A stretch of DNA of 63,196 bases, the filler included, from Candidatus Tectimicrobiota bacterium (lineage in GTDB: Bacteria > JACPSX01), in NCBI GenBank assembly GCA_016193065.1. It is 5 parts of 5 records of this genome, joined end to end, with 100 filler letters (N's around TTAATTAATTAA, not from the genome) between each part and the next. Parts side by side here need not be neighbours in the genome. Positions count along the whole stretch, not along the records: positions 1 to 14,188 come from JACPSX010000025.1; 4 more parts are not named here. One strand, given 5' to 3'. Positions within the stretch are counted from its first letter, which is position 1. Each line of letters begins with the position of its first letter. Below, piece after piece: positions 1-14,188 of the stretch. Position numbers and translations under genes: made by a program. A model generated the notes under the pieces. That model did no database searches, was not told where the DNA came from, and worked only from the letters and a program-made list of their open reading frames with translations.

Positions 1-514
1 AGAAGACCGAGCAGCGCCGGCATTCGGTGCACTGGTAGAAGTAGTAGAACCACTCCTTGAGGACACCTTCGATGAGATCGCGCGCTCCGGCCAGGCCGCG
101 CAGGATCCGGCCGGCGAGCGTGAAATACCTCCGGTAGACCGAGCGCACGAGCTCGGCGCGCAGGACCGGCATGTTCTTGGGATCCCCGGAGCCCAGGTAG
201 AACTGGCACTTGTCCGCGCAGGCCCCGCAGCGCACGCAGATGTCCATGAAGAGGCGGAAAGAGCGGTACTTCTCCAGCCTCTCCTTCATCCCCTTCAGGA
301 TGATCTCTTTCCAGTTCGGGGGGAGCTTCCAGTCCTCGTCATAGGGCTGCCACTTGCGCGGGTTGGACAGTCCCAGGTATTCCAGGTGCTTGGGCAGGGC
401 GCTGTAGCAGAAGACCCCTTTGCGGAACTCCACGGCCGGATCTCGCCAGTCCTTCTCGGGGGGGCTGTAGTCGATGCGGGCGACTTCTTCGGGTTTGGGG
501 GATGGTTCCGCCAT
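1..514 (-). CDS. dsrK: DsrK, heterodisulfide-reductase-like Fe-S subunit of DsrMK(JOP); runs off the window edge
   Basis: Manual translation from ATG 514: MAEPSPKPEEVARIDY...FMDICVRCGACADKCQFYLGSGDPKNMPVLRAEL...YQCTECRRCSVF; directly follows dsrM. Confidence 0.95.
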   Translation of the reverse strand, partial: MAEPSPKPEEVARIDYSPPEKDWRDPAVEFRKGVFCYSALPKHLEYLGLSNPRKWQPYDEDWKLPPNWKEIILKGMKERLEKYRSFRLFMDICVRCGACADKCQFYLGSGDPKNMPVLRAELVRSVYRRYFTLAGRILRGLAGARDLIEGVLKEWFYYFYQCTECRRCSVF

Positions 515-517
515 GTT

Positions 518-1510
518 CTAGCCCTTCTCCAGAGGCAGCCCGGCCGTCCGGATCTTGTCCCGGAACTCCTCTTCCCACTCCTCGTAGGTGTGGACCTTGA
601 CCGGGTAGTCCCAGGGATTGACGTGTCGCTTCATGCGGTTGTTGTTGGCCAGGTTTCTCGTGGGGCTCAGAAAGACCCCCGCCATGTGCATGAGCTTGCT
701 GAAGGGGAAGTAAGCCACCAGAACGCTCAAGAGGAAAAGGTGAACAAAGAACAGCGGCCCCACTTCTTTGGGTATGACCGGTGAGAAGGTCACCAGGCCC
801 ATGGCGAGCTGCTTGGCGGCCACCGTGTCGATACGGAAGAAGTACCGCATGAGGACTCCGGCGAGGACAACCCCGAGCAGCAGGTAGAGGACGAAGTAAT
901 CGGTGAACAGGGAGACGTAGCGTACCGGGGCGTCCCTGAGCCTCCTGAACAGCAGGTAGCCGAGCCCCGCCAGAATCAGAATGTCCGTCATGTAGAGGTC
1001 CGGCACACCGATCTGGAAGAACCCGTCCAGTCCAGAGAGCAGGTTCACGAAACCGGGGATCGGTTCCAGGAAGAAGCGCAAGTGCCGCAGGAGGATGAAC
1101 AGGAAGGACCAGTGAAAGGCCAGGGCGGCAAGCCAGAGGGCCTTGTTTTCCCCGTAGACGAGCCTGGGACCCGCCCGGAGCTCCGCCCGGGTATTGCGGA
1201 AGAGGGACCGGAACAGTCCCACCTCCAGAGCCATCCGGGCCACCACACCCGCTGTGGAGTCGGGGCTCTCCAGCCATCCGGTCTTGATCCACGGCAGGGA
1301 TTTCTGCTGCCCGCAGGTGGTGGGTATGCGGAAGGGGACGGGAGAGCGGGCCCAGCCCGCGACCCTCCAGGCGACTCCCAGGAGAAAAAGAGTGAGGGCG
1401 GCATAGGGTGCCAGGACGCCGAACAGAAGTCGCAGGGGCTCGACCAGGCTCCCCAGGAAGGGGACGGCGGCCAGGACGAGCACCAGGAGGAGCGAATTCA
1501 GCGCCTGCAT
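518..1510 (-). CDS. dsrM: DsrM, membrane cytochrome b subunit
   Basis: PVPFRIPTTCGQQKSLPW, heme His motifs AFHWSF..LLRHLRFF and YFPFSKLMH, SPTRNLANNNR. Confidence 0.95.
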   Translation of the reverse strand: MQALNSLLLVLVLAAVPFLGSLVEPLRLLFGVLAPYAALTLFLLGVAWRVAGWARSPVPFRIPTTCGQQKSLPWIKTGWLESPDSTAGVVARMALEVGLFRSLFRNTRAELRAGPRLVYGENKALWLAALAFHWSFLFILLRHLRFFLEPIPGFVNLLSGLDGFFQIGVPDLYMTDILILAGLGYLLFRRLRDAPVRYVSLFTDYFVLYLLLGVVLAGVLMRYFFRIDTVAAKQLAMGLVTFSPVIPKEVGPLFFVHLFLLSVLVAYFPFSKLMHMAGVFLSPTRNLANNNRMKRHVNPWDYPVKVHTYEEWEEEFRDKIRTAGLPLEKG

Positions 1511-1516
1511 AGTCCC

Positions 1517-2032
1517 TCACCCCGCCTTTCTTCCCTGCATTCTTTCCACCAGGTACATCCTGCGCCTGGACTCGCCGGCCTGGATGGCCAGGATCTGCTC
1601 CCGGCACTTGGCGTAGAGCCCGGAGGCGAGCAGGGCCAGTTCGTCAATTCTGCCTTCCAAAGCCGTCAGCGCGTCCGCTGCTTCTTCCCCCTCTTTTCGC
1701 GCCTCTTCCCGGATGATGTTTTTCAGCAAAAAGATGAAACCCACTGCCTGGGCGGCGCTGAAATCCTGAACGGCCCGGATCCGCACGATCGTGTCCAGAA
1801 GACCCTCCAGGCGTGCTCCGTCCCTCTCCCCCAGGAGCTCGTCGAAGAGAGCCGGAAGAGCTTCCTGGAAGGCGTGGCCCACCGGATTGCGAAAGCGATC
1901 CTTCTCCCGCAGGAGAAAGCGGCGGGTGTGCTCGGGATACGTCTCCAAGGTCCGCGTGAGCCAGACCTCGACCACGGTCTTCTTCCGCGCCTTCAGTACC
2001 TCCATCAGGGAACAGTCGCCTTTGGGCTTCAT
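1517..2032 (-). CDS. dsrT: DsrT (RsbRD N-terminal-like domain)
   Basis: EKDRFRNPVG and IVRIRAVQDFSAAQAVGFIFLLK motifs; between dsrC and dsrM; start may be ATG 2005. Confidence 0.9.
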   Translation of the reverse strand: MKPKGDCSLMEVLKARKKTVVEVWLTRTLETYPEHTRRFLLREKDRFRNPVGHAFQEALPALFDELLGERDGARLEGLLDTIVRIRAVQDFSAAQAVGFIFLLKNIIREEARKEGEEAADALTALEGRIDELALLASGLYAKCREQILAIQAGESRRRMYLVERMQGRKAG

Positions 2033-2072
2033 GGCGCCTCCACCAAGTCCGTTCTCGCCTCCGGTACCTTCG

Positions 2073-2393
2073 CTAGACGCAGCCCGTGGGCTTGGGGAGG
2101 CCGGCCACCTTGCAGGCCCCCTTGGCCGGGCCGGACGGGAAGAGCTCGTAGATCTTCTTGAGCTGGAAGCCGGTCTCCTTGCAGAGCTTGCGGATCATGG
2201 GGGCGATCCTGAATTCCTGGTAGTAGGTCCGCAAGTAGCGGACCACCTTCCAGTGATCGTCCGTCATCGGCTCGATCCCTTCCTCCCGCTTGGCGATCTC
2301 GGCGGCCACATCCTCATCCCAGAGCTCCGGGTTCTGGATGAACCCGTCCTCGTCCACCTCGAATTCCTTTCCTGCCAGGACAACGGTTCCCAT
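2073..2393 (-). CDS. dsrC: DsrC sulfur carrier
   Basis: C-terminal GPAKGACKVAGLPKPTGCV with both conserved Cys (CX10C). Confidence 0.97.
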   Translation of the reverse strand: MGTVVLAGKEFEVDEDGFIQNPELWDEDVAAEIAKREEGIEPMTDDHWKVVRYLRTYYQEFRIAPMIRKLCKETGFQLKKIYELFPSGPAKGACKVAGLPKPTGCV

Positions 2394-2434
2394 CTTTGCT
2401 CCCCTTTCACATGGCGCCTTGTGAAATGGTTCCT

Positions 2435-3973
2435 TCAGCTTCCTCTTGTTTCCCCCCTCACCCCGACCCTCTCCCGCCCCTCAACCTCACCTTCCCCCCA
2501 CAGGGGAGAAGGGAGGGATGAGGGGTGAACTGCGGCAGCGCGACGGCGGTTTGCGTGCAGTCGCGCCTGTCGGACCAAAGCGCTTGCCCATTCGCGGGTC
2601 CCGCCCGCATGGAAGTGACAGAACGAAGCGAGGACGTTCTTGTACACGAGACCGTCCCGTTTCCCGTCGAATCCGTAGCCGCGCTCCATGCGGAAGGCCA
2701 TGCGGAGAGCCCCGGGCCGGGCGCCGCGCACGCGGGAGTAGCGGAATTCGTGGCCCCGCAGCACGGTCCCCGCAGCGAAAAACGGATTGGTTTCCCCCAC
2801 CTCGACCCGGGTGTATCCGTGTCCTTGCGGTCGGCTGCCCAGCTCGAAGGTCACCGGGAAGACGCCCACCATCGGTTGAGCCACGCCTTCCATCACCATG
2901 GCCTCCCCGAGATAGATCAGGCCGCCGCACTCTGCGATGACGGGGAGTCCAGCTTCGATCTCCCGCCGCAGGGCTTTCCGGAATCCGGAATTGGCCGCCA
3001 GTGTTCCCGCGTGGGTCTCGGGGTACCCCCCGCCAATGTAAAGCGCGTCCAACGGGGGAAGGTCAGGATCGGTCAGGGCATTGATCTCCACCAACGTGGC
3101 CCCAAGGCGCTCCAACGCCTCCAGGTTCTCGGGGTAATAGAAGGTGAAGGCGCTGTCTCTCACGACCCCGATCCGTACACCCCGTGCGGAACCCAACGAT
3201 TTCACCTCATTCGATTCGGATGTCCAGGTGAGGGGAGGCACGGCGGTGGCCAGAGCCCGAATGGCTTCCAGGTCCGCATGGTTTTCGACCGCCCGGCGGG
3301 CGACCGTGATCGGCAAGGCTGCCTCCCGATGTTCCGCCGGAGTGAGGAGCCCCAGGTGCCGTTCCGGAAGCTCCGTGTCCGGGAGGCGGGGAATACTTCC
3401 CAGCACGGGCAATCCGCAGATCTCCTCCACGGCCGTTCGGATCGCCGCTTCCTGACGGGGTGTGGCCACCCGGTTTAAAATGACGCCCGCCAGATGCACC
3501 TCGGGGTCCATCCGCTGGCACCCTAAAACCATGGCGGCTACAGTGCGCGTCGCTTTCGTGCAATCCACCAGGAGAACCACGGGCGCTTGCAACAGTCTGG
3601 CCAATTCGGCGGTGCTGCCGGCCGGGTACCCAGGCCCAGGGTCTGGGTGGGCGTCCAGGCCGTCGTACAGACCGTGGTTTCCCTCCACCACCAGGATGTC
3701 CGCGCCGCTGCCGTGCTCCCCTGCGGAGAAGAGAATTTGCTTCTCGGACATCAGGTAGGTATCCAAATTGCGGCACGGTCGGCCGGCAGCCAGGGTAAGC
3801 CAGGCCGGGTCAATATAATCCGGGCCTTTCTTGAACGGGGCGACCCGGATTCCCTGCGCACGCCAGGCCGCGATGATCCCCATGGTCACCAGGGTCTTGC
3901 CGGTGCCGCCTCGCAGGCTGCCGATCACCAGCCGGGGACAGGGCTGACTCTTTACTGCGGTTTCGTTGCGCAT
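2435..3973 (-). CDS. dsrN: DsrN, cobyrinate a,c-diamide synthase family (siroheme amidase)
   Basis: GGTGKT, FKKGPDYID, LPERHLGL, AECGG, GHEFRYS motifs; inside dsr operon; ATG 3973; C-terminus extended by a repeat. Confidence 0.9.
   Translation of the reverse strand: MRNETAVKSQPCPRLVIGSLRGGTGKTLVTMGIIAAWRAQGIRVAPFKKGPDYIDPAWLTLAAGRPCRNLDTYLMSEKQILFSAGEHGSGADILVVEGNHGLYDGLDAHPDPGPGYPAGSTAELARLLQAPVVLLVDCTKATRTVAAMVLGCQRMDPEVHLAGVILNRVATPRQEAAIRTAVEEICGLPVLGSIPRLPDTELPERHLGLLTPAEHREAALPITVARRAVENHADLEAIRALATAVPPLTWTSESNEVKSLGSARGVRIGVVRDSAFTFYYPENLEALERLGATLVEINALTDPDLPPLDALYIGGGYPETHAGTLAANSGFRKALRREIEAGLPVIAECGGLIYLGEAMVMEGVAQPMVGVFPVTFELGSRPQGHGYTRVEVGETNPFFAAGTVLRGHEFRYSRVRGARPGALRMAFRMERGYGFDGKRDGLVYKNVLASFCHFHAGGTREWASALVRQARLHANRRRAAAVHPSSLPSPLWGEGEVEGRERVGVRGETRGS
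2452..2525. repeat. REP-like palindromic element (CCCCTCACCCC..CCCTCTCCC..GGGGAGA), compound copy inside dsrN 3' end
   Basis: C-rich arm followed by complementary G-rich arm; related copies at 3988, 15164, 19231. Confidence 0.75.
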
Positions 3974-3987
3974 TACCCGCTCCCGGT

Positions 3988-4037
3988 CCCCCCCCACCCC
4001 ACCCTCCCCCTCGGAGGGGGGAGGGACAGGGAGGGGG
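3988..4037. repeat. REP-like palindromic element between dsrD and dsrN
   Basis: CCCCCCCCACCCCACCCTCCCCCTCGGAGGGGGGAGGGACAGGGAGGGGG; hairpin CCCTCCCCC/GGGGGAGGG. Confidence 0.75.
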
Positions 4038-4061
4038 TGAGAAAGGCATTTTCAGACAGGC

Positions 4062-4313
4062 TTAGATCTCCGTGCCCTCCTCGGGAGGTAGCTCAACGAA
4101 GCTCCCCCCGTAGTACGTATAGACGCAGCGCCCGGAATCCATGAGGCGGCGCAGGGCCTCCTTGCAGGCTTCCTTGCTGCAGCGCTCCGGGCCGAAGTGC
4201 TCCATCATGGCCTTGGTCAGGTCCGTGGGCTTGAGCTTCTTGACGCCGGTGGCTTCCTTGACCATCCGGTACATCGCTTCCGACAGCTCCTCGATCGTGA
4301 CGGGGTTCGCCAT
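4062..4313 (-). CDS. dsrD: DsrD
   Basis: 83 aa from ATG 4313 with GAGGAGG RBS; KKLKPTDL and GRCVYTYYGGSFVELP motifs; immediately after dsrB. Confidence 0.9.
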   Translation of the reverse strand: MANPVTIEELSEAMYRMVKEATGVKKLKPTDLTKAMMEHFGPERCSKEACKEALRRLMDSGRCVYTYYGGSFVELPPEEGTEI

Positions 4314-4323
4314 GGTGCCCTCC

Positions 4324-5406
4324 TCACGACTTGATGTGCACGGAACGCTGGTAGGTAAGACCGGCATGCCGGAAGTCGTCAATGTGCTGCTTGGTGAACG
4401 GGATACCGGTCTTCTGGAAGAAGCGGGGCCAGCCAATCCGCTCGATCCACTCGCCCATCCGCTCGTACTTCCGGGCATCCTTCGCCCACACCTCCACGAT
4501 GTTCTTCACCGCGGCCACCACCTCCGGCCAGCGGGGGGGATTGTTGGGCAGGTACGGGATCGCCAGTTTGGAGAACATCGGGGCATGCCGGGCGTTGCTG
4601 ACCTTTCCCCCTACCCAGATGGACACGCCGTCGTTCAGCGCGTTGCTCAAGGGCATGGCGGGGCACACCGTGTAGCAGTTGCCGCAGAACATGCACTGCT
4701 CCTCGATGACCTCCACCGTCTCTTTTCCGTTGATCCGCTTGGGGCGGATGGCTGCGGTGGGGCAGGAAGCCACCACCGTGGGGATCTCGCAGATCTTGGA
4801 GAGCTTCTCCTGGTCGACCTTCGGCGGCCGCCGGTGGATCCCCAGGATTGCAATGTCCGAGCAGTGCACCGCCCCGCACATGTTCAGGCAGCAAGCCAGC
4901 GCCAGCCGCAGCTTGGCCGGCAGCTCCATGGTCTGGAAGTGGCCGATCAGTTCGTCCATCACCGATTTTACGATCCCCGAGGCGTCGGTGGCTGCCGAGT
5001 GGCAGTGGATCCATCCCTGTGTATGGACCATGCTGGAGATGGCGTTTGCGGTTCCACCGACCGGAAAGCCTCTCGTTGTGAGCTCAATGATCAGAGGCCC
5101 CACCTTGTCCGGGTCGGTGAGCAGGAACTCGATGTTGTGGCGGCTCGTGAAGCGCAGGTAGCCGTCGCTGTAGGTGTCCGCCAGGTCGCAAAGCTCGCGG
5201 ATCGTCTGAATGCTCAAGAGCCGCGGCGTCCCGGCCCGCACCGTGTAGAGCTTGTCTCCCGATTCCGCCACATGAACCAAGACCCCGGGCTGAACGATCT
5301 CGTGGTACTTCCACTTCCCGTAGTTTGCCTTCACCACCGGGGGCAGGAACTTTTCGTAATGAGGAGGGCCGATATCGGTCTTCCGTTCCGCAACGGTGTC
5401 AGCCAT
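4324..5406 (-). CDS. dsrB: Dissimilatory sulfite reductase beta subunit
   Basis: [58 protein letters not shown]. Confidence 0.98.
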
Positions 5407-5429
5407 GGCTTTCTTCTCCTTACAATTGT

Positions 5430-6650
5430 TCACCCTTCGGTCTCGCTCGCCGCTTCGGGCTCTTCTTCGAAGTACTCTTCGTAGAACACGTAGGGGTTCT
5501 CCCGGGGATGGGCCACCATTTCGGGCTTCGGCTCCAGGCCGATGGCCTCCAGGAAATTGCCCAGGCCCACGCGCTGGATGAACTCCCCGACCCGCTCCCG
5601 GCTCTTCCCTTCCTCGGACCAGAGGTCCAAGATCTTTCCCACCAGCTCCTTCAGCTCGGTGTAAGGCGGTTCCATCTTCATGAACGGCACCAGGACCGAG
5701 GAGAGCATCGCCCCCTGCACGATCGGCGCTTTCGAGCCGATGAGGATGACGGCCCCCCTCTCCTGGCCGGGGCGCAGGGCCTTGGGCATGGCGTTGATGC
5801 AGTGCATGCACTTCACGCACCACTCGTCGGCGATGCGGAGTTCCTTCCCGTTCCAGGACATGCACTGGCTGGGGCAGCGCTCGCAGACGTCGGCCTGGAT
5901 GTCGATTCCGTTTTCCGTGTACTCCTTGAGGGCGGCTTGGTCGATCTGGATCTCGTCTCTCCAGGTGCCGATGATGCTCAAGTCCGCCCGGGCGATGGCC
6001 GCCACGCAGTCGTTGGGGCACCCCGAGGCCTTGAACTTGAACTTGTAGGGGAAGGCCGGACGGTGCAGTTCGTCCTGGAAGTGCATGGTGATGTCGTAGG
6101 TGAAGTTCAGGGTGTCGTAGCAGGCCCACTCGCAGCGGGCCGGCCCGACGCAGCAGCTTGGTGTCCGGACGTCCGACCCCGACCCGCCCAGGTCAAACCC
6201 GGCCTTCGTCAGATCGGCAAACGTAGATTCCAGCTCTTCCGTGCGCGTTCCCAGCAGGATAATGTCCCCGGTAGAGCCATGGAGATTCGTAAGTCCCGAG
6301 CCGTGTCGCTCCCAGAGGTCGCAGATGGCGCGCAGGGCCTCGGTCCGATAAAACCAGCCGGCCGGCTGGTTGACCCGCAGTGTGTGGAAGTGGGCGACGT
6401 TGGGGAACTTCTCGGGGACGTCGGAATAGCGGCCGATGACGCCGCCCCCATAGCCCCGCACCCCCACGATCCCGCCGTGCTTCCAGTGGCCGACCTTCTC
6501 CTCGTACGAGAGTTCCAGAACCCCCAGGAGGTCCCGGGCCATGGGGCTTTTCGTGGCGGCCCGCTTGATCTCCCGCACAAAGCTGGGCCACGGCCCTTTC
6601 TCCAGTTCGTCCAGCTTCGGTGTCTGAGAGGGCTTGTTCTCATCACCCAT
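5430..6650 (-). CDS. dsrA: Dissimilatory sulfite reductase alpha subunit
   Basis: [26 protein letters not shown], siroheme/FeS CVGPARC..CPNDC, HPRENPY; ATG 6650 with GGAGG RBS. Confidence 0.98.
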
Positions 6651-6685
6651 TGTTGTCTTCCTCCCTGGTGCGACGGCCTCGGGGC

Positions 6686-8365
6686 TCACACCATTTCGAT
6701 GTAGCCGCAGGGGCATTCCTCTGCGCACTTCTTGCAGCCCTGGCAAAACTCCAGCTTGAACCGGTAGGGTTGGCCCTTCTCGAAGGGCTTGATCACGGCC
6801 TGGTCCTGGCAGTACTTCCAGCAGTTGTCGCATTCGGAGCACAGGCCGCAGCTCAGGCAGCGCTTGGCTTCGGCGATGACCTGTTCGCGGGTCAGGCCCA
6901 GGTTCACTTCCCGGTCCGGGTCCTGCAAGCGCTCGTCTACCGGGACACGCTCCATCTCCGTGCGTGGCTGCTTGGGGTAATAGTCCAGCCGCATCCGGTC
7001 ATAGGTGATCACCGGAGGCGCAGGAGCGGACTCCACCGGGGTTCCTCGCAGCCGGGAGTGGATAACCTCGGCGGCGCGACGGCCATGGAAGATGGCGGTG
7101 GTGACGATTCCCAATTCCAGGACGTCGCCGCCGGCGAAGGCACCCGGCACTGTGGTTTCCCCGCGGTCGTCTACCGGGATTCCTCCACGCTCGGCTGTGA
7201 AAGACTCCAATCCGGTGAAGTCCGGCTCCTGGCTGATTGCCGCAATGATAGTACTGGCGCCCACGTAGAACTCGGAGCCCGGGATCGGTACCGGGCGGCG
7301 CCGGCCGCTGGCGTCCGGCTCTCCCAGTTCCATCCGCAGGCAGGTCAAACCCACAGCGCAGCCGTTCTCGGTCGCCACCGCGGATGGCGCTGCCAGAAAT
7401 TCGATCTGGATCCCCTCGCGCTTGGCTTCCTCCACCTCCTGCCTGATGGCGGGCATTTCCTGGATGGTTCGGCGGTAGAGGATGGTGGTTTTGGCTCCCA
7501 GGCGCGCCGCCGCGCGGGCCGCGTCCACAGCGGTGTCTCCGCCGCCCACCACGACAACCGTCTTCCCAACGTCCGGTCGCTCACCCGCGTTGACGCGGTG
7601 CAGGAACTCCACGCCGGAGAGCACGTTTGGCGCTTCATCCCCCGGAACCCCGAGGGAGAGCCCTCGGTGTGCGCCGATGCCGACGAAGATCGCCGCATAG
7701 ACCTGGCGGAGATCTTCGTAGGGCACGTCCTTCCCCACCATCGTTTCACAGCGGAGCTCCACGCCCAGGGCAAGAATCCGCGCAATTTCCGCGTCCAGGA
7801 TTTGGCGGGGCAGGCGGTAGGTCGGGATGCCGTAGCGCAGCATGCCGCCTGGCTTCGGGAACGCCTCGAACACCGTCACCGGGTAGCCGCGGCGGGCCAG
7901 TTGGTAGGAGCAGGAGAGACCGGAAGGGCCAGAACCAATTACTGCGATCTTTTCCGGGAGACGATCCTCGCTCAGGCGACGCAGCGGGAATCCTTTCTCC
8001 AGCGCAAAGTCCCCGATGAACCGCTCCAGACAATTGATCGAGGCGGGAGCATCCAAGTGATTCCGGTTGCACGCTTCCTCGCACGGGTGGGGGCAAACCC
8101 GTCCGCACACGGCCGGCAGGGGGTTTCGCTCCGCGATGATATAAAACGCCTGCTCGAAGGCCTGGTCGTACGATTTCCCGTGGGTCTCGGCCTGGGCAAT
8201 GTTGGTGAGGACGGCGCGAATGTCCGTGTGGTTCGGACAGACGTCCGAGCAAGGCGGCGTCTTGAGCACGAACTGGGGTCTGAGCGGCGAGGTTGCTCGT
8301 GCACCTGGCCCTGCGGCTATGCCGGAGAGTCCTCCGAGCTTTCGAACCTTCTTGATGACGGGCAC
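6686..8365 (-). CDS. dsrL: DsrL (DsrL-2-like) FAD/Fe-S NAD(P)H oxidoreductase
   Basis: [19 protein letters not shown], two Rossmann motifs, ILYRR motif, C-terminal ferredoxin [29 protein letters not shown]; directly upstream of dsrA. Confidence 0.92.
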
Positions 8366-8438
8366 CTGGGAGCTCTCCTTTCTATCACCCGGCTCAATTC
8401 GGCAATCGGCACACCCGTTCCCTCACGTTCTTATCCCA

Positions 8439-8454
8439 AGCAAGGACTTTGCCA
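8439..8454 (-). promoter_or_regulatory. Sigma54 (-24/-12) promoter of the dsrL-A-B operon
   Basis: Minus strand TGGCAAAGTCCTTGCT = GG-N10-GC, ~75 nt upstream of dsrL start. Confidence 0.85.
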
Positions 8455-8519
8455 GCTTGGCTCTGCGCTGGAACTGCTTGAGAAAAGTGCCCTGAGGGTT
8501 GGGGAGAGAGTCGGGACAG

Positions 8520-8566
8520 GTTACCCAAAGGTAACAGGTCATCCCTGCACGTTACCTTTCGGTAAC
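8520..8566. promoter_or_regulatory. Tandem palindromes GTTACC-N4-GGTAAC (8520-8535, 8551-8566); putative enhancer-binding-protein sites
   Basis: GTTACCCAAAGGTAAC and GTTACCTTTCGGTAAC, 31 bp apart, upstream of the sigma54 promoter. Confidence 0.8.
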
Positions 8567-8790
8567 GCGGGGGGCCATGAAACACCCAGATGCTTCAGCT
8601 TCTTCCACAAGGTCTTCCGGCTGATCCCGAGGATCCGGGCGGCCCGAGCCCGGTTTCCTTCCGTGATTTTCAGGACAGAGAGGATGTGCTCGCGCTCCGC
8701 CTCTTCCCGCACTTTCCCAAGCGACTGGTCCTGTACACCAAGAGGAAATGGCTCCATCGCCTGTGCTCTCTTTCTCATGTTGGATGCCAT
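8539..8790 (-). CDS. Stand-alone Fis-type helix-turn-helix protein (C-terminal domain of a sigma54 activator); start uncertain (8817/8790/8778/8757)
   Basis: LGKVREEAEREHILSVLKITEGNRARAARILGISRKTLWKKLK; no AAA+ domain. Confidence 0.75.
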   Translation of the reverse strand: MASNMRKRAQAMEPFPLGVQDQSLGKVREEAEREHILSVLKITEGNRARAARILGISRKTLWKKLKHLGVSWPPALPKGNVQG

Positions 8791-8905
8791 CGCAAAAAGA
8801 GAATGGACACGGGGCAAATCATGATGGCGGCCCCGCGCGGCCTGTTTTTTTTCACCTTCTTACTTATCCATCCGTGCAGACCGCGCCGGCGCCGCCATTC
8901 CGGAT

Positions 8906-10432
8906 CTACTTAATCACCGGCATCGGGAAGAGGGTTCCTCCAAACAGGAGATATGCCAGGATCAGCGTCCAGATGATGTTGAAGCCCTGGGCTCCCAGGA
9001 AAGCCACAGCCGGCCGGCCCCCTTCCATACTCGCCAGTTGGCCGAACCTCGTCTCCAAGCCGATGCAGGTAAAGGCCAGCGCAAACCACACCGTCCGCAG
9101 CCCGCCCAGTACCCCCTTGGTGGCCGAGACGGTCGTCGCAGGCAGGAAGAAGGAGAAGACGATCGAAGCCACCAGGAAGCCCAGGACGAACTTCGGGAAG
9201 CGCTCCCAGATCACCCCCGCGCTGGGCCGCTCGCCGGTCTGTGCGCCTGTCTTGAAGGCCCACCAGACCGCCAGGATGAAGGCCGCCACGCCGATCAGGA
9301 CGTTCTGGGAGAACTTGACGATTACGCCCACCTTCATGGCGGCTTCGCTGACGAGCGATCCGGCAGCCACCACGGAGCCGCTGGTGTCCAGCGTTCCTCC
9401 CAGCCAGGCCCCGCCGACCACGTCCGGGATTCCGAGGACCCTAACGATCCAGGGCATCAGGACCATCATGGGGACGGCGCACACCAAGATGATGGAGGTG
9501 GTGTAGCTGAGCTTCTTCTTATCCCCCTGGATGGCCCCGCAGGCGGCAATGGCGGCGGAGACCCCGCAAATGGAGACGCCGGTGGCCAGGATCGCCGCGA
9601 ACTCATCATCCACTCGTAGCTTCTTGGCCAGCCAGAAGCAGGTGTACCAGATCACCGAGACGACGAGAATCGCCTGAATGATCCCGTAAGCACCCGCCTG
9701 GAGGATCTCGAAGAAGAGGATCCCGGCCCCCAGGATCACCAGCCCCGTCTTGATGTAGTACTCGGTGCGGATTGCCTCCTTCAGCCACTCGGGCACTCCG
9801 AGAACGTTGCTGATGAAGAGGCCGATGATCAGCGCCCAGAGGACGTATTCCAGCCCCCAGTAGCTCACGGTGAAGTTCCCGGCAATGAACATGGAGAGCC
9901 AGGCCAGAATGTAGATCACCGGGAAGCCCAGGAGAAAGGCCCCCACCTTGCGCCCCATCAGCGCGTTGCCGATGGTGGCAAGGATGAGGAAGCCGAGCCC
10001 GATGTAGATAGACCAGAGGATGTTCCCTGAGGAGAACACCTTGCCGACCAGTTGACCTGCTGCTCCACTCACGTCCTTGCTGATCGCCCCGGCCTTCTTT
10101 TTCAAGGCGGCATCCTGCACCTTCGCGGCTCCGAGCGTCTTGGCGGCATCACCGATAGCCTTCCTGTCCTGACCCCCCATGGCAGTCCTGAGGGTCGTAG
10201 AAGCCACCAGCAGGTCCGCCTCTCCTTTCTCCCCGGCGGACTTGACGAGGGTCTCCACTGCCGGCGTGTTCTCGGAGACCATGGACATGAATTCACCATC
10301 GGTGGTCCACTTAAACGACGGCATCTTTGCCTGAACACCCAGGACAATGAGGGCAATGATGAGGAACCCGAGCCAGACCCCCATCCAGTCCTCATTCTTT
10401 AAGAGACTCAACCCCTTTTTCTCTTCCGCCAT
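8906..10432 (-). CDS. YeiH/UPF0324 family membrane protein (putative sulfate/sulfite exporter family)
   Basis: EYYIKTGLV, GVSICGVSAAIA, GAWLGGTLDTSGSV, IWERFPKFVLGF; multiple TM helices. Confidence 0.9.
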   Translation of the reverse strand: MAEEKKGLSLLKNEDWMGVWLGFLIIALIVLGVQAKMPSFKWTTDGEFMSMVSENTPAVETLVKSAGEKGEADLLVASTTLRTAMGGQDRKAIGDAAKTLGAAKVQDAALKKKAGAISKDVSGAAGQLVGKVFSSGNILWSIYIGLGFLILATIGNALMGRKVGAFLLGFPVIYILAWLSMFIAGNFTVSYWGLEYVLWALIIGLFISNVLGVPEWLKEAIRTEYYIKTGLVILGAGILFFEILQAGAYGIIQAILVVSVIWYTCFWLAKKLRVDDEFAAILATGVSICGVSAAIAACGAIQGDKKKLSYTTSIILVCAVPMMVLMPWIVRVLGIPDVVGGAWLGGTLDTSGSVVAAGSLVSEAAMKVGVIVKFSQNVLIGVAAFILAVWWAFKTGAQTGERPSAGVIWERFPKFVLGFLVASIVFSFFLPATTVSATKGVLGGLRTVWFALAFTCIGLETRFGQLASMEGGRPAVAFLGAQGFNIIWTLILAYLLFGGTLFPMPVIK

Positions 10433-10495
10433 GTTTGTTCCTCCCCTAAGAAATGAAAGCAGATTGCGGCGGACTCGATATCCATCCTTCTCAAT

Positions 10496-10511
10496 AGCAA
10501 GGACCTTGCCG
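10496..10511 (-). promoter_or_regulatory. Sigma54 promoter of the YeiH-family exporter
   Basis: Minus strand CGGCAAGGTCCTTGCT (GG-N10-GC), 14/16 identical to the dsrL promoter. Confidence 0.82.
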
Positions 10512-10585
10512 GATGAACAACTCGTCGGAAGCGCTGGAGAAAGCGTGTCTTACACGCCAAGGGGGGTCGGAGCGCTCGAGTAGAG

Positions 10586-10633
10586 GTTACCGAATGGGAA
10601 CATTCCTTGGAGAAACGGTTACCTCTCGGTAAC
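10586..10633. promoter_or_regulatory. Second tandem GTTACC-N4-GGTAAC pair (10586-10601, 10618-10633)
   Basis: GTTACCGAATGGGAAC (1 mismatch) and GTTACCTCTCGGTAAC, 32 bp apart. Confidence 0.8.
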
Positions 10634-10680
10634 CCGTCTCTTAGTGCGCCGTGAGCCGTTCAGAATCCGGATCAGGGACC

Positions 10681-12177
10681 TCAGCTCTTTATCCAGCCTT
10701 TGAGCTGTTTCACAAAGGTGTCCTGGAGGTATGGCCAGGCCAGGAAGGCCGCGGTCAGGATCAGGATGACCAGCGAGATCGGCTTGGTCACGAACACGGA
10801 ATAGGATCCGTCGGAGATCAGGAGCGCCCGGTGAAACATCCGCTCGATCAGGCTCCCGAGGACCAGACCCAGGACGAGGCAGGCGGGGGGATAGCCGGCC
10901 TTTCTGAGGATAAAGCCCAGCAACCCGAACAGGAGCATCGCCAACACGTCGAAGAGGTTGGAGCGGAAGGCGTAGGTGCCGTAAACAGAGAGGGCGACGA
11001 TCAGCGGCACCAACAGCGCCGAGGGGACGACCACGATCTTGGCGAAGAAGCGAGCCAGGATCAAGCCCAGGATGAAGAAGGTGAACTGGGCCAGGAGGAT
11101 CCCCGCAAAGACCGCGTAAGGGACAACGCCGCTCGAGAAGAAGTCGGGACCGGGCTTGAGCCCCTGGATCGTGAGCGCAGCGAGCAGAATGGCCGTGGTC
11201 GCCGAGCCCGGAATTCCCAGCGTGAAGGTTGGAACCAGGTCCCCCACGACGCAGGCGTTCTTGGCCGTCTCCGGGGCGAGAAGTCCCGCTGGGTTTCCTT
11301 CCCCGAAGGTCTCGGGCTCCTTGGAGAACTGCTTTTCCACGAAATAAGCCGAGATGCTGGCGGAAATGATCCCCAGAGCGGGCATGACACCCATGAAGAT
11401 GCCCACGAGCCCCCCCCGGATCAACGTCAACGGCCTTCGCAAGATTTCCTTCAGTCCCCTCCAGATGCTGTCGGCCACTTTCCGGACTTCTCCCGCCTGG
11501 GCGCTTTCCTCCGTCAGGATCATGGCCTGAGAGAGGGCGAACAGCCCCACGGTGACGGGGATCAGATTCACCCCGTCTTCCAGGTAGAGGCTGCCGAAGG
11601 TGAACCGGTAGGCCCCGCGGATGGGGTCCTGGCCGATGAAGGACAGGAGCAATCCCACGCCGCCCATGACCAGGCCCTTGGTCGTCTCCCCCCTTGCCGC
11701 GATGGAGAGCAGGGAGAGGGCCATGATTCCCAGGGCGAAATATTCCGCCGGGCCGATCTTGAGAGCCACGCTCGTCAGCAGCGGAGCGATCAGTACCAGG
11801 CTCAACCACCCCATCACCCCGCCGATCATGGAACCGAAGGTGGAGATGCCGAGAGCCATGCCCGCCCGACCCTGTTTGGCCAGAGGATAGCCGTCCCAGC
11901 AGGAGGCGACGGACCCCGGGCCCCCCGGTACGTTGATGAGAATCGAGGCGATGGAGTCTCCATAGGCCGTGGCGGCGTGAATGGAGCACAGAAAGATGAT
12001 GGCCGTCGCGGGAGGCATGAAGAACGTGAAGGGGAGCATCAGGGCGACACCGAAGATGGGCCCCAGGCCGGGGAGGACGCCGATGGCCAGGCCGATGAGC
12101 GCCCCCACCACAAGATAAAGCAGGTTGGTTCCCGACAGGGCCAATTGGAATCCCGCCATCCAGAGGTCCATGGTCAT
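10681..12177 (-). CDS. tctA: Tripartite tricarboxylate transporter large permease TctA
   Basis: GVLPGLGP, SILINVPGGPGSVASCWDGYPLA, APETAKNA, TLGIPGS motifs. Confidence 0.93.
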   Translation of the reverse strand: MTMDLWMAGFQLALSGTNLLYLVVGALIGLAIGVLPGLGPIFGVALMLPFTFFMPPATAIIFLCSIHAATAYGDSIASILINVPGGPGSVASCWDGYPLAKQGRAGMALGISTFGSMIGGVMGWLSLVLIAPLLTSVALKIGPAEYFALGIMALSLLSIAARGETTKGLVMGGVGLLLSFIGQDPIRGAYRFTFGSLYLEDGVNLIPVTVGLFALSQAMILTEESAQAGEVRKVADSIWRGLKEILRRPLTLIRGGLVGIFMGVMPALGIISASISAYFVEKQFSKEPETFGEGNPAGLLAPETAKNACVVGDLVPTFTLGIPGSATTAILLAALTIQGLKPGPDFFSSGVVPYAVFAGILLAQFTFFILGLILARFFAKIVVVPSALLVPLIVALSVYGTYAFRSNLFDVLAMLLFGLLGFILRKAGYPPACLVLGLVLGSLIERMFHRALLISDGSYSVFVTKPISLVILILTAAFLAWPYLQDTFVKQLKGWIKS

Positions 12178-12198
12178 CGCTGCATTCTCCCGGGAGGG

Positions 12199-12684
12199 TT
12201 AGAAAATCACCTGCGGCATGGGGATCCTCAACAGGTAGGTGAAGGGGTAGTAGAGAGCGGCCGTAATACCCACCGCCACCGGGATCACCACTTTCCAGCG
12301 CCCGTAGTGGAGCATGAAGGGGATCAGGAGAGTGTAGGCCAGCGTGGGCCACAGCAACCCCAGCAGCGGGATGAGCAGGAAGTAGCCGACCATCGCCGCG
12401 TAGGACCACCAGGCGATACCTGCAATGGAACCCCCACGGCGAGCCCCGCCGGTCTCAGCGCCCGCTTCCGCCGTCTCCGTCTTGCCGGCCTTCACGACAC
12501 TGCGTATCCTCCCGACCAGGAGGCAGGCCGTGGCCAGAATCACGAGGCCGGAGACGAGGCGGGGAAACAGCGCCGGGACGGGCCCGTACCGGAACGTCTC
12601 GATCAGGAACGTGAGGGAGAAGATCAGGATGACCAGCGAAACCAGGGATCCCAGATTCAGCAGACCTGTCACGATTCCACCCAT
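12199..12684 (-). CDS. tctB: TctB small permease
   Basis: 161 aa, ~4 TM helices, PALFP motif, ends LRIPMP; between tctC and tctA. Confidence 0.85.
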   Translation of the reverse strand: MGGIVTGLLNLGSLVSLVILIFSLTFLIETFRYGPVPALFPRLVSGLVILATACLLVGRIRSVVKAGKTETAEAGAETGGARRGGSIAGIAWWSYAAMVGYFLLIPLLGLLWPTLAYTLLIPFMLHYGRWKVVIPVAVGITAALYYPFTYLLRIPMPQVIF

Positions 12685-12780
12685 GGCGCCTCAGACTCCT
12701 GCCGGGAATTTCACCTCGACCCGGATCTGCCGCTGCTCGTGTCCTCAGCCGGATATCCGGGCCATCAGATCTCCTTTCCC

Positions 12781-14154
12781 CTAATCCATCCCGGCTTTCA
12801 GCGCCGGGAGCATTTCCTCGACCATCTTGCTTGACTCCAGAATCATCCGCCGGAACTCGCCGGCAGAGGCCGGGGCCAGGGTGAAATCGGACCTCCTGGC
12901 GATGGCCACGAAGGCGGGGTCGGCCACCGCCTTGGCGGTGGCGCTCTCCAGGGCCTTCGCGATGTCCTCCGGCATCCGGGGCGGACCGAGGATCCCCAGG
13001 GAAATGTCGAAGCCGACGTCGCGATAGCCCAGTTCCACCAGGGTCGGAACCTCCGTAAAGGAATCGTGCCGCTTGGGGCCAAACCCGGCAATCACCCGGA
13101 TTCGCTTCTGCTCCGCCAGGGGGCTGAAGCTCACCACGCTGCCGGTGGCCATGTCCACCTGCTTGGAGATCACCGCGAGGGCGGCTTCGGTGCCGCTGTC
13201 AAAGGGGATGTATTTGACGTTCAGGCGCACCTTCTCCTTCAGGAGAACGAAGGCCAGGTAGCTGTTGTTGCCGATGCCGGAGCCCGAGACCTTGATGCTT
13301 TTCTGTTTCCCCAGATTCTTGAGGTCCTCCAGGGTCTTCAGGGGCGAGTCATAAGGCACAGCCAGGTAGTTGTAGTCCCCTCCGGTGATGTTGTAGATCG
13401 GGGTCATCTCCTCCATCTTGTAGCCGGGGTTGTCCATCTTCTGGGAGATCATGGGGGCGGGAACCCCGGTGAGGACCAGGGTGTAGCCGTCGGGCTTTGC
13501 CTTGTAGACCTGGTTTCTTCCCACCTTCCCTCCGGCCCCGGCCACGTTCTCGATCACGACGGGGGCGTTCAGGTACTTGGACAGGAAGGGCTGAAGGGTG
13601 CGGGCCACCTCGGGGTACTGGATGTCCCCGCACACGAGGACTCCCAGGCGCCCGATGGGGGTGTCCACGACGGGGAAGAGCGCCTCCTCGCCGAACACCT
13701 CGATGAATCGCCGGTAGACGTCCCCCGGACCCGTGTAGGTCGTGTTCAGATTGTTGGGTCCGTTGTGCTTTCGGTAGGTCAGGACGATTTCGCCCCGTGG
13801 GTCGATGATCACCGTGGTGTTGAAGTAGCGGCCCGGGAACTCGGGGTGCCGCTCCAGGAAGTGGCCGACCAGGTAAATCTCGAACTTCCTGGCCGTCTCT
13901 CCGAGCAGATCCGTGGCGAAGTTGGGGATGGGCAGGGCGATTTCGATCCATTCCTCCGTGGATCTGGGGCGGTACTGGCCGAACAGGGAATACTCCCCGG
14001 TAACTGCCAGCTTGACCTCGCCGATGCGGTGGAAGAGAAACCCGATCAGGTCGGTGATCCGGCGGATGTTTGTCTGGATGTGGCTCTCCCGTTCCTCCAG
14101 GCGGCGGACTACCTGACAGGGGCTTTGAATCAAGACGCCGTCGTAAGGGTCCAT
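12781..14154 (-). CDS. Chimeric ORF: N-terminal carbon-nitrogen hydrolase fragment (aa 1-~185) fused to TctC/Bug substrate-binding protein lacking its N-terminus
   Basis: Nitrilase-type triad E54/K129/C175 (VCGDIQYPEVAR), then TctC VVIENVAGAGG..AKPDGYTL..VPTLVELGY. Confidence 0.85.
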   Translation of the reverse strand: MDPYDGVLIQSPCQVVRRLEERESHIQTNIRRITDLIGFLFHRIGEVKLAVTGEYSLFGQYRPRSTEEWIEIALPIPNFATDLLGETARKFEIYLVGHFLERHPEFPGRYFNTTVIIDPRGEIVLTYRKHNGPNNLNTTYTGPGDVYRRFIEVFGEEALFPVVDTPIGRLGVLVCGDIQYPEVARTLQPFLSKYLNAPVVIENVAGAGGKVGRNQVYKAKPDGYTLVLTGVPAPMISQKMDNPGYKMEEMTPIYNITGGDYNYLAVPYDSPLKTLEDLKNLGKQKSIKVSGSGIGNNSYLAFVLLKEKVRLNVKYIPFDSGTEAALAVISKQVDMATGSVVSFSPLAEQKRIRVIAGFGPKRHDSFTEVPTLVELGYRDVGFDISLGILGPPRMPEDIAKALESATAKAVADPAFVAIARRSDFTLAPASAGEFRRMILESSKMVEEMLPALKAGMD

Positions 14155-14188
14155 GCCTTCCTCCCTCGCGTTCGGAACAAACCTCCAC

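Follow-up and report, generated by a model that had tools for sequence, protein, structure and literature searches.

The window analysed here is a 63,196-nucleotide stretch from the genome of Candidatus Tectimicrobiota bacterium GCA_016193065.1 (labelled G000; C-numbers denote its contigs, G- and L-numbers other genomes and loci), in which several contigs are joined by runs of N. Positions 1-14188 are contig C9, on which a dsr operon and a gene for a YeiH-family transporter are each preceded by a sigma54-type -24/-12 promoter and, further upstream, by a pair of boxes of the form GTTACC-N4-GGTAAC. The promoter of dsrL-A-B-D-N-C-T-M lies on the minus strand at 8439..8454 (TGGCAAAGTCCTTGCT, 8454-8439; GG-N10-GC), with a predicted start near 8428. 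That of yeiH and a small helix-turn-helix (HTH) gene lies at 10496..10511, likewise on the minus strand (CGGCAAGGTCCTTGCT, 10511-10496), with a predicted start near 10485, and the same site is present in relatives. Both dsrL boxes are perfect palindromes (proximal, 8520..8535; distal, 8551..8566, within the 3' end of the small HTH gene); the proximal yeiH box (10586..10601) has one mismatch and the distal one (10618..10633) is perfect. The boxes within the two pairs are spaced 31 and 32 bp, the gap from box to promoter is 65 bp at dsrL and 74 bp at yeiH, and the box centres lie 74-118 bp upstream of the GG, matching enhancer-type upstream palindromes. All four boxes, three of them perfect, and both promoters lie where the first-pass annotation had placed them. 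With up to two mismatches allowed, these four are the only boxes in the window, compared with 0.74 ± 0.81 in shuffled sequences, and four were reached in 0 of 100 shuffles. A scan of both intergenic regions for sigma70-type promoters returned 0 sites, a weak negative at a chance expectation of just 0.1-0.2.

The genes behind the two promoters are all on the minus strand. dsrL (6686..8365) passes PRK12771 and its product has a YRR motif, which assigns it to type 2 by a criterion given in a part of PMC8528874. dsrA (5430..6650, start inferred) and dsrB (4324..5400, start approximate) score above the cut-offs of TIGR02064 and TIGR02066, respectively. The next gene (4062..4313) encodes an 83-amino-acid protein with no match in Pfam, NCBIfam or PDB, named putative DsrD from its position next to dsrAB and from 'putative DsrD' Atlas clusters at 0.97-0.98. 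Further along, dsrC (2073-2393) and dsrM (518-1510) pass NCBIfam cut-offs, and dsrKJOP-like open reading frames (ORFs) carry on in the overlapping contig C115; the genes that we take to be dsrN (2435-3997), dsrT (1517-2032) and dsrKJOP owe their names to family matches or position. No match to sat or aprA was found in G000. The yeiH product (8906..10432) is a membrane transporter of the YeiH/UPF0324 family that scores 153.9 bits on PF03601 (cut-off 24.5) and 80.5 on TIGR00698, under the cut-off of 232.6, and by this family match may be a sulfite exporter. The small gene between yeiH and dsrL (8539..8757), which was missed in the first pass and overlaps the distal dsrL box, encodes a 72-residue protein with a Pfam HTH_8 domain and no AAA+ domain. 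Near the end of C9, an ORF at 12781-14154 (minus strand) fuses a nitrilase-like N-terminus (PF00795, residues 30-188) to TctC (PF03401, residues 183-448); its first 336 bp equal the end of contig C65 at 98%, for which a rearrangement or an assembly chimera are both possible.

Across the whole genome the palindrome is tied to its spacer of four: there are 7 perfect and 11 one-mismatch boxes, against 0 perfect and 0-5 one-mismatch boxes for six other spacers. Nine box pairs occur genome-wide, compared with 0 for spacers 2, 3, 5, 6, 7 and 8 and 0 for each of 30 permuted palindromes, and eight of the nine are followed after 65-78 bp by GG-N10-GC. Conversely, a box lies within 200 bp of 8 of the 165 sigma54-like sites in G000, exactly the paired ones (25 permuted motifs give 0-2). 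In an alignment of the eight promoter regions the half-sites and the -24/-12 bases are kept, and the N4 centres and spacers are variable. Besides the two promoters on C9, five are on C65, where they precede an arylsulfotransferase-like gene with a radical SAM gene, tatA, a small cytochrome c gene, a Psr/Phs-like molybdoenzyme operon and a nitrilase-like gene. The eighth, on C274, lies directly behind genes for a kinase and an NtrC-type regulator and ahead of a third molybdoenzyme operon that includes a second yeiH. The two-operon regulon proposed in the first pass is therefore contained in a much wider one of eight promoters. No arsenite oxidase match was found among the regulon operons of G000, whose molybdoenzymes are Psr/Phs- or Fdh-like.

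Since contig ends overlap (C65 with the end of C9 over 336 bp at 98%, C115 with the start of C9 over 393 bp), C65, C9 and C115 probably form one island. Among 118 large contigs, C9 and C115 deviate the most in tetranucleotide profile, and C65 and C274, which together carry seven pairs and the regulator, are typical (ranks 43 and 50); C9 may be misbinned. The C65 island also encodes a GAF-GAF sigma54 activator with a different recognition helix (L001:9703-11991). The operon behind the C274 regulator contains an ORF of 1023 amino acids with no Pfam or NCBIfam match and a phosphodiesterase/sulfatase-like ORF of 703 amino acids (L004:6290-9361 and L004:85-2196, respectively, on C274). Similar short stretches in translations near C65 8100, C274 9950 and C274 16300 suggest a small dispersed repeat.

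The NtrC-type protein on C274 (7944-9287) is a candidate for the activator. It combines a receiver, an AAA+ domain with an intact GAFTGA motif and an HTH_8 domain, and its gene adjoins that of a HisKA/HATPase kinase (C274:6488-7975), the periplasmic part of which bears a CxxCH motif. Among the 15 bacterial enhancer-binding proteins (bEBPs) of G000, it alone has an SRKxLW recognition helix. A pattern scan of 185,579 genomes yielded at least 118 loci; a bEBP gene is present in 20 of 80 long-flank loci among the matches listed, and 19 of these 20 proteins carry the SRKxLW helix. Adjacency, co-occurrence and the shared helix make it likely that the C274 regulator binds the boxes.

The arrangement is conserved in related dsr loci. 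When 251 Methylomirabilota genomes were searched with DsrL alone, which avoids motif bias, 10 matches were obtained, 9 of them beside dsrA. All nine dsrL-dsrA loci, three of which had originally been found through the motif, show yeiH, the HTH gene, a box pair, a sigma54 site (63-66 bp on) and dsrLABD; the tenth match has neither dsrA nor boxes. Orthologs of the C274 regulator are encoded in 8 of the 9 dsr genomes versus 7 of 242 others. In L131, L150 and L267 the gene is part of the yeiH/dsrL cluster, and in G043 it shares a contig with dsr. At L267 (13852-15307, G060) a frameshift, perhaps from a sequencing error, divides the sensor kinase into two ORFs that overlap. The same-genus sister G001 has no dsrA, no regulator ortholog (best 46-47%) and no box pairs. 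Among Desulfobacterota, taken as best-scoring dsrA matches with flanks of ~1.5 kb, a box plus promoter was found within ~1.5 kb upstream of dsrA in 0 of 54 loci, and within the same distance in none of 5 other loci from the class of G043. At L266:8718-10306 (G063), two genes of the altronate/galactarate dehydratase family stand between yeiH and dsrL, behind a second HTH gene and box pair and surrounded by insertion-sequence remnants; we presume a resemblance to the sulfolactate sulfo-lyase SuyAB, which would feed sulfite to Dsr.

A second version of the layout occurs in Acidobacteriota, of which 40 of 401 genomes are dsrA-positive. In four of them yeiH-dsrA or dsrA has an upstream sigma54 site and, ending 93-95 bp ahead of it, a single box of the GTTAC-N6-GTAAC type; these four loci hold nine such single-box promoters, versus 0 for 40 permuted motifs. 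An SRKTLW regulator forming a clade of its own is encoded in all four, on the dsr contig in three. A fifth genome, G462, was found by searching the 40 for the regulator, and its yeiH-dsrA promoter then showed a perfect box at -92; this second SRKTLW clade is thus present in 5 of 40 genomes, and 5 of 5 have a box and a sigma54 site before (yeiH-)dsrA. G342 carries the paired cassette together with a C274-type regulator on the same 139-kb contig. The promoter region of its cassette (L346:2100-3900) is a variant in which a perfect box lies between two divergent sigma54-like sites upstream of the HTH gene, with a further box plus site beyond. The layout is absent from 32 examined genomes of the 34 without either regulator type, with flanks of at least 7 kb in 15, 3.7-7 kb in 5, ~1.5 kb in 11 and 212 bp in 1.

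The apr genes appear to be included where they exist. aprA is present in 3 of 10 paired-type relatives and 3 of 4 single-box genomes. In 6 of these 6 regulon genomes aprB follows a sigma54 site that has a box 163-169 bp upstream, as against 0 of 3 controls. Box pairs ~2 kb from aprA were considered as apr operators and rejected, as they face a divergent gene (of the TauE/SafE family at the single locus that was scanned), and aprB has one box to itself. A cytidylate-kinase-like gene (L309:2230-3108, PF13189; also L311 and L312) lies just upstream of the aprB promoter in Methylomirabilota- and Acidobacteriota-type loci alike.

These distributions bear out two expectations of the first-pass annotation: a single sigma54 activator common to dsrLABD and yeiH is supported by conservation in the nine Methylomirabilota loci and in Acidobacteriota, and the motif is conserved in related dsr loci (permuted palindromes, 0) rather than randomly scattered. 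As to its proposal of an inducible, facultative Dsr metabolism, COX1-family genes, found in 18 of 18 searched genomes (16 regulon genomes, G000 and the sister), fit a facultative lifestyle, although this family also contains nitric oxide (NO) reductases.

We consider it highly probable that the Dsr pathway is under a genuine and conserved sigma54 regulon whose two-component activator can be identified. The motif, its layout and conservation, its co-occurrence and proximity to the regulator gene and the conserved CxxCH are observed directly, whereas binding, the use of sigma54, phosphotransfer, attachment of heme, the signal and the role of the HTH-only protein are inferred; the following model is to be read in that light. 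A membrane kinase (C274:6488-7975) would sense a signal through a periplasmic PAS/Cache-type domain with a c-type heme motif and phosphorylate the NtrC-type regulator (C274:7944-9287). With two regulator dimers on boxes separated by some three helical turns, looping would bring them to the sigma54 polymerase at the -24/-12 site, where they would open the promoter. The predicted outputs in G000 are dsrLABDNCTM(KJOP), yeiH, the arylsulfotransferase-like and radical SAM genes, tatA, the small cytochrome c, two molybdoenzyme operons and a run of nitrilase-like/Tct transporter genes. The HTH-only protein, with the same reading head and presumably unable to activate, would most likely compete for the boxes, acting as a feedback brake or as a threshold against leaky expression.

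Several observations weigh against this reading. No rpoN was found in the 86%-complete G000 assembly, an absence that the first-pass annotation had named as grounds for abandoning sigma54 control. Yet in the sister G001 rpoN lies just upstream of hprK, and the matching G000 contig C216 stops inside hprK, ~850 bp before the syntenic rpoN position, so that the gene is apparently missing through an assembly gap; rpoN is present in G001 and in 5 of 5 tested relatives, and G000 encodes 15 full sigma54-activator domains. In G000 the regulator and dsr are on separate contigs, one of the nine Methylomirabilota dsr genomes (G041) is without a regulator ortholog, and the ninth box pair (C65:7971) has just a poor promoter candidate. 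The 16 paired-type DsrA sequences, including those of G000 and of a Chloroflexi-labelled genome, form one clade (support 99), and the agreement of their loci therefore counts as one inherited event, not many; a transferred cassette is the best account of this clade together with the atypical composition of C9 and C115. Across 79 distinct promoters the gaps from box to promoter cluster at 50-55, 62-66, 72-79 and 83-86 bp, about one helical turn apart, but part of this periodicity comes from the search patterns (spacing 30-33, gap 55-85) and from kinship. The code from helix to box is not absolute, as DVU0539 of Desulfovibrio vulgaris has an SRKQLW helix yet listed sites like TGCTAAC-N4-GTTAGCA. 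Sequence matches of the sensor domain to Geobacter heme sensors are weak (E 0.87 and 0.98), and the Acidobacteriota kinase has an sCache domain without CxxCH, so that the predicted heme is not a general feature of dsr control.

What the kinase senses can be narrowed by its periplasmic domain and by the distribution of the regulator. All 26 aligned sensor domains keep two Cys, a His and one Met, and the structural model of the domain (predicted local distance difference test, pLDDT, 79.7) resembles PAS/Cache sensors, including Geobacter GSU0935 and GSU0582 and also the non-heme DctB and WalK. With the Geobacter heme-c PAS sensors GSU0582 and GSU0935 (PDB 3b47 and 3b42; Foldseek E 2e-5 to 3b42) it has in common a CxxCH that aligns close to the end of the domain and a Met that aligns within the first helices; those, however, are chemoreceptor domains, and DctB and WalK score equally by fold. 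In the Geobacter sensors the Met is an axial ligand and the heme binds NO and carbon monoxide. CxxCH is present in all 6 Desulfobulbales-type kinases viewed and in 0 of 4 aio/arx-type kinases.

The strongest alternative, tentatively raised in the first pass, would make the system a dedicated sensor of sulfite through which its reduction and its export are induced together. Two transporter families with names that refer to sulfur export (YeiH and TauE/SafE) have members under the box, the regulon includes arylsulfotransferase-like genes, and sulfite is a plausible substrate where sat and aprA (G000) or aprA (7 of 10 paired-type relatives) have no match. Part of the text of PMC12880088 describes YeiH as driving sulfite resistance in Salmonella, where a YeiH-family transporter is likewise under a dedicated regulator; YeiE, however, is a cytoplasmic LysR-type protein not tied to a dissimilatory sulfite reductase. 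Against a sulfite sensor, aprBA-qmo also has the box and is needed when sulfate, not sulfite, is present. Furthermore, in genomes without dsr, regulator orthologs with 71-76% identity and accompanying boxes precede genes for formate dehydrogenase-N (G053, G057), ArrA-like (G264, G045) and TtrA-like (G266) enzymes. Because the regulator clade also stands before these non-dsr respiratory operons, the spread of orthologs favours a general respiratory cue, read by a heme, rather than sulfite as the sole signal; orthologs could, however, be specific for different ligands. The suggestion of a sulfite-sensing activator is not supported in the form given, and we regard a dedicated sulfite sensor as possible but doubtful. 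As to the signal itself, redox state or a gas read by heme is our leading candidate, if short of an even chance; sulfite or another sulfur oxyanion ranks behind it as a serious contender, and some other cue is unlikely.

The HTH-only protein and the C274 regulator have the same recognition helix, SRKTLWKK. Short relatives of the protein number 164, 24 sampled members of which are sister to the HTH of the regulator (tree of 47 columns, support 90), and no AAA+ remnant was found upstream of the gene in any frame. In 20 of 24 loci the gene extends into the distal box, with its stop codon inside the GGTAAC half-site position in 17. Its ratio of nonsynonymous to synonymous polymorphism (pN/pS) is 0.11 versus 0.43 (22 sequences, 48 codons), a biased figure in that the collecting pattern fixed many residues. 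Like Fis, it is a small stand-alone HTH_8 protein, and Fis arose from the C-terminal domain of NtrC; on the Fis model, however, it scores 33.9 bits (cut-off 99), and it groups with the HTH of one regulator and is encoded atop its presumed binding site. Competition for the boxes is the simplest role, since the protein cannot remodel sigma54 and is transcribed from the yeiH promoter (elsewhere with the kinase-regulator pair); we give a competitor about an even chance, think a DNA-bending helper possible but rather doubtful, and rate any other role as less probable still.

It is improbable that the HTH-only protein is instead the main binder of the boxes and that another bEBP, such as the GAF-GAF activator of C65, activates. 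The HTH gene is indeed the most tightly linked gene, with its overlap of the distal box in 20 of 24 loci, and a GAF-GAF activator is located in the C65 island. The helix of that activator is TRSQLY, however, and it was set aside as the box activator on this ground. Moreover, at C274, G053 and G057 pair promoters lie directly behind the response regulator with no HTH gene between, and Acidobacteriota-type loci have box and regulator with no HTH-gene match near dsrA. Most improbable is that the pairs are duplicated DNA or dispersed repeats carried by a dsr island that is mobile or misbinned, and that they now regulate nothing in this genome: C9 and C115 are atypical, rpoN was not assembled and repeat-like arrays without a sigma54 site exist in Flavobacterium, Roseobacter and Burkholderia, but only the boxes and -24/-12 bases are kept across the eight promoters while centres and spacers vary, seven pairs and the regulator are on contigs of typical composition, C9 and C65 share a 98% overlap of 336 bp, and layout and regulator go together in different phyla.

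A two-component sigma54 regulon over a respiratory enzyme has a precedent in AioXSR of Agrobacterium tumefaciens GW4 and Rhizobium NT-26. The AioR consensus GTT-N10-AAC and the footprint GTTCGGATTTCCGAAC are given in a part of PMC5335332, and the box described here has the same length and ends and fits this consensus. Perfect box pairs also occur before aioBA-like genes with SRKxLW regulators, which share ~41% identity with the C274 regulator. Because of this fit and these pairs, the box type, judged by its form, belongs to a known AioR-like family and is not new. The present system differs from AioXSR in having dsr, apr, yeiH and reductase operons as targets and in coming with an HTH-only paralog; the C274 kinase has a CxxCH motif, and no gene for an AioX-like binding protein was found among the annotated ORFs beside it. 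The regulator falls in a clade separate from aio-linked ones in a quick tree with unresolved deep nodes, with 74-81% identity within its own clade versus ~41% to aio-linked regulators, which were taken from aio loci and do not include a characterised AioR.

Sigma54 response regulators are also known from sulfate reducers, namely DVU0539, DVU0946 and NrfSR (DVU0621) of Desulfovibrio. Parts of PMC4641369 and PMC5701242 report, respectively, that DVU0539, with its SRKQLW helix, controls a UPF0324 (YeiH-family) transporter and that NrfSR controls an alternative respiratory enzyme. The Desulfovibrio sites listed in these sources differ from the present box (TGCTAAC-N4-GTTAGCA type; GTCA-N8-TGAC type), which rules out the box as a Desulfovibrio NrfR site. 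In the text and five supplements of PMC4641369, as far as these were available, dsr and apr are absent from the sigma54 regulome of D. vulgaris, and DVU0402 and DVU0846 have 0 occurrences in the supplements. The redox repressor Rex is likewise predicted at the dsrABD and apsAB promoters of Desulfovibrio, and according to a part of PMC4045070 dsrABD is not induced in a D. alaskensis rex mutant; the regulator proposed here, by comparison, would be an activator and strictly required. In the literature searched, with RegPrecise and most subscription journals outside its scope, we found no description of sigma54 control of dsr or apr, of this motif, or of YeiH with dsrAB. The consulted portions of surveys of dsr diversity and marine Acidobacteriota (PMC10591310, PMC8528874) do not contain the word 'sigma', and their supplements might bear on novelty.

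Beyond the dsr loci, the same paired box is found in Desulfobulbales and relatives (L007, L024, L027, L028, L041, L044, L049, L070, L075). There it belongs to nap/nrf-type loci that encode SRKxLW regulators and CxxCH kinases, and it often precedes a sigma54 site by 50-55 bp; it is unlike the site of Desulfovibrio NrfR, and the arrangement looks like a separate nitrate/nitrite regulon. Palindrome arrays or pairs without a sigma54 site in Flavobacterium, Rhodobacterales (Roseobacter), Bacteroidia and Burkholderia (L017, L019, L021, L033, L038, L048, L077 and others) are probably unrelated repeats.

Taken more broadly, we favour with modest confidence the view that, in at least four groups of phylum rank, facultative sulfate or sulfite reducers express the whole Dsr pathway (dsrABD, dsrL, dsrTMKJOP, aprBA-qmo and exporters) from sigma54 promoters under a dedicated activator. 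This control would have been recruited twice, with a heme-c kinase and paired boxes in a mobile Methylomirabilota-type cassette and with an sCache kinase and single boxes in some Acidobacteriota, the first version including a Fis-like HTH-only brake encoded across its own operator. If true, the box would allow inducible sulfur respiration to be recognised from the sequence of uncultured genomes. In a facultative sulfate-reducing acidobacterium the Dsr pathway is transcribed almost only under anoxia, and the main text of that report, as far as consulted, names no regulator (PMC10564751). The present loci offer a candidate sensor, activator, site and promoter for such a switch in related lineages, all of which could be tested in a laboratory host without culturing. 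The motif could sort dsr genomes into inducible and other types, the ligand of the kinase would reveal the trigger of sulfur respiration, and the HTH-only paralog would be a compact example of a feedback regulator budding off an enhancer-binding protein.

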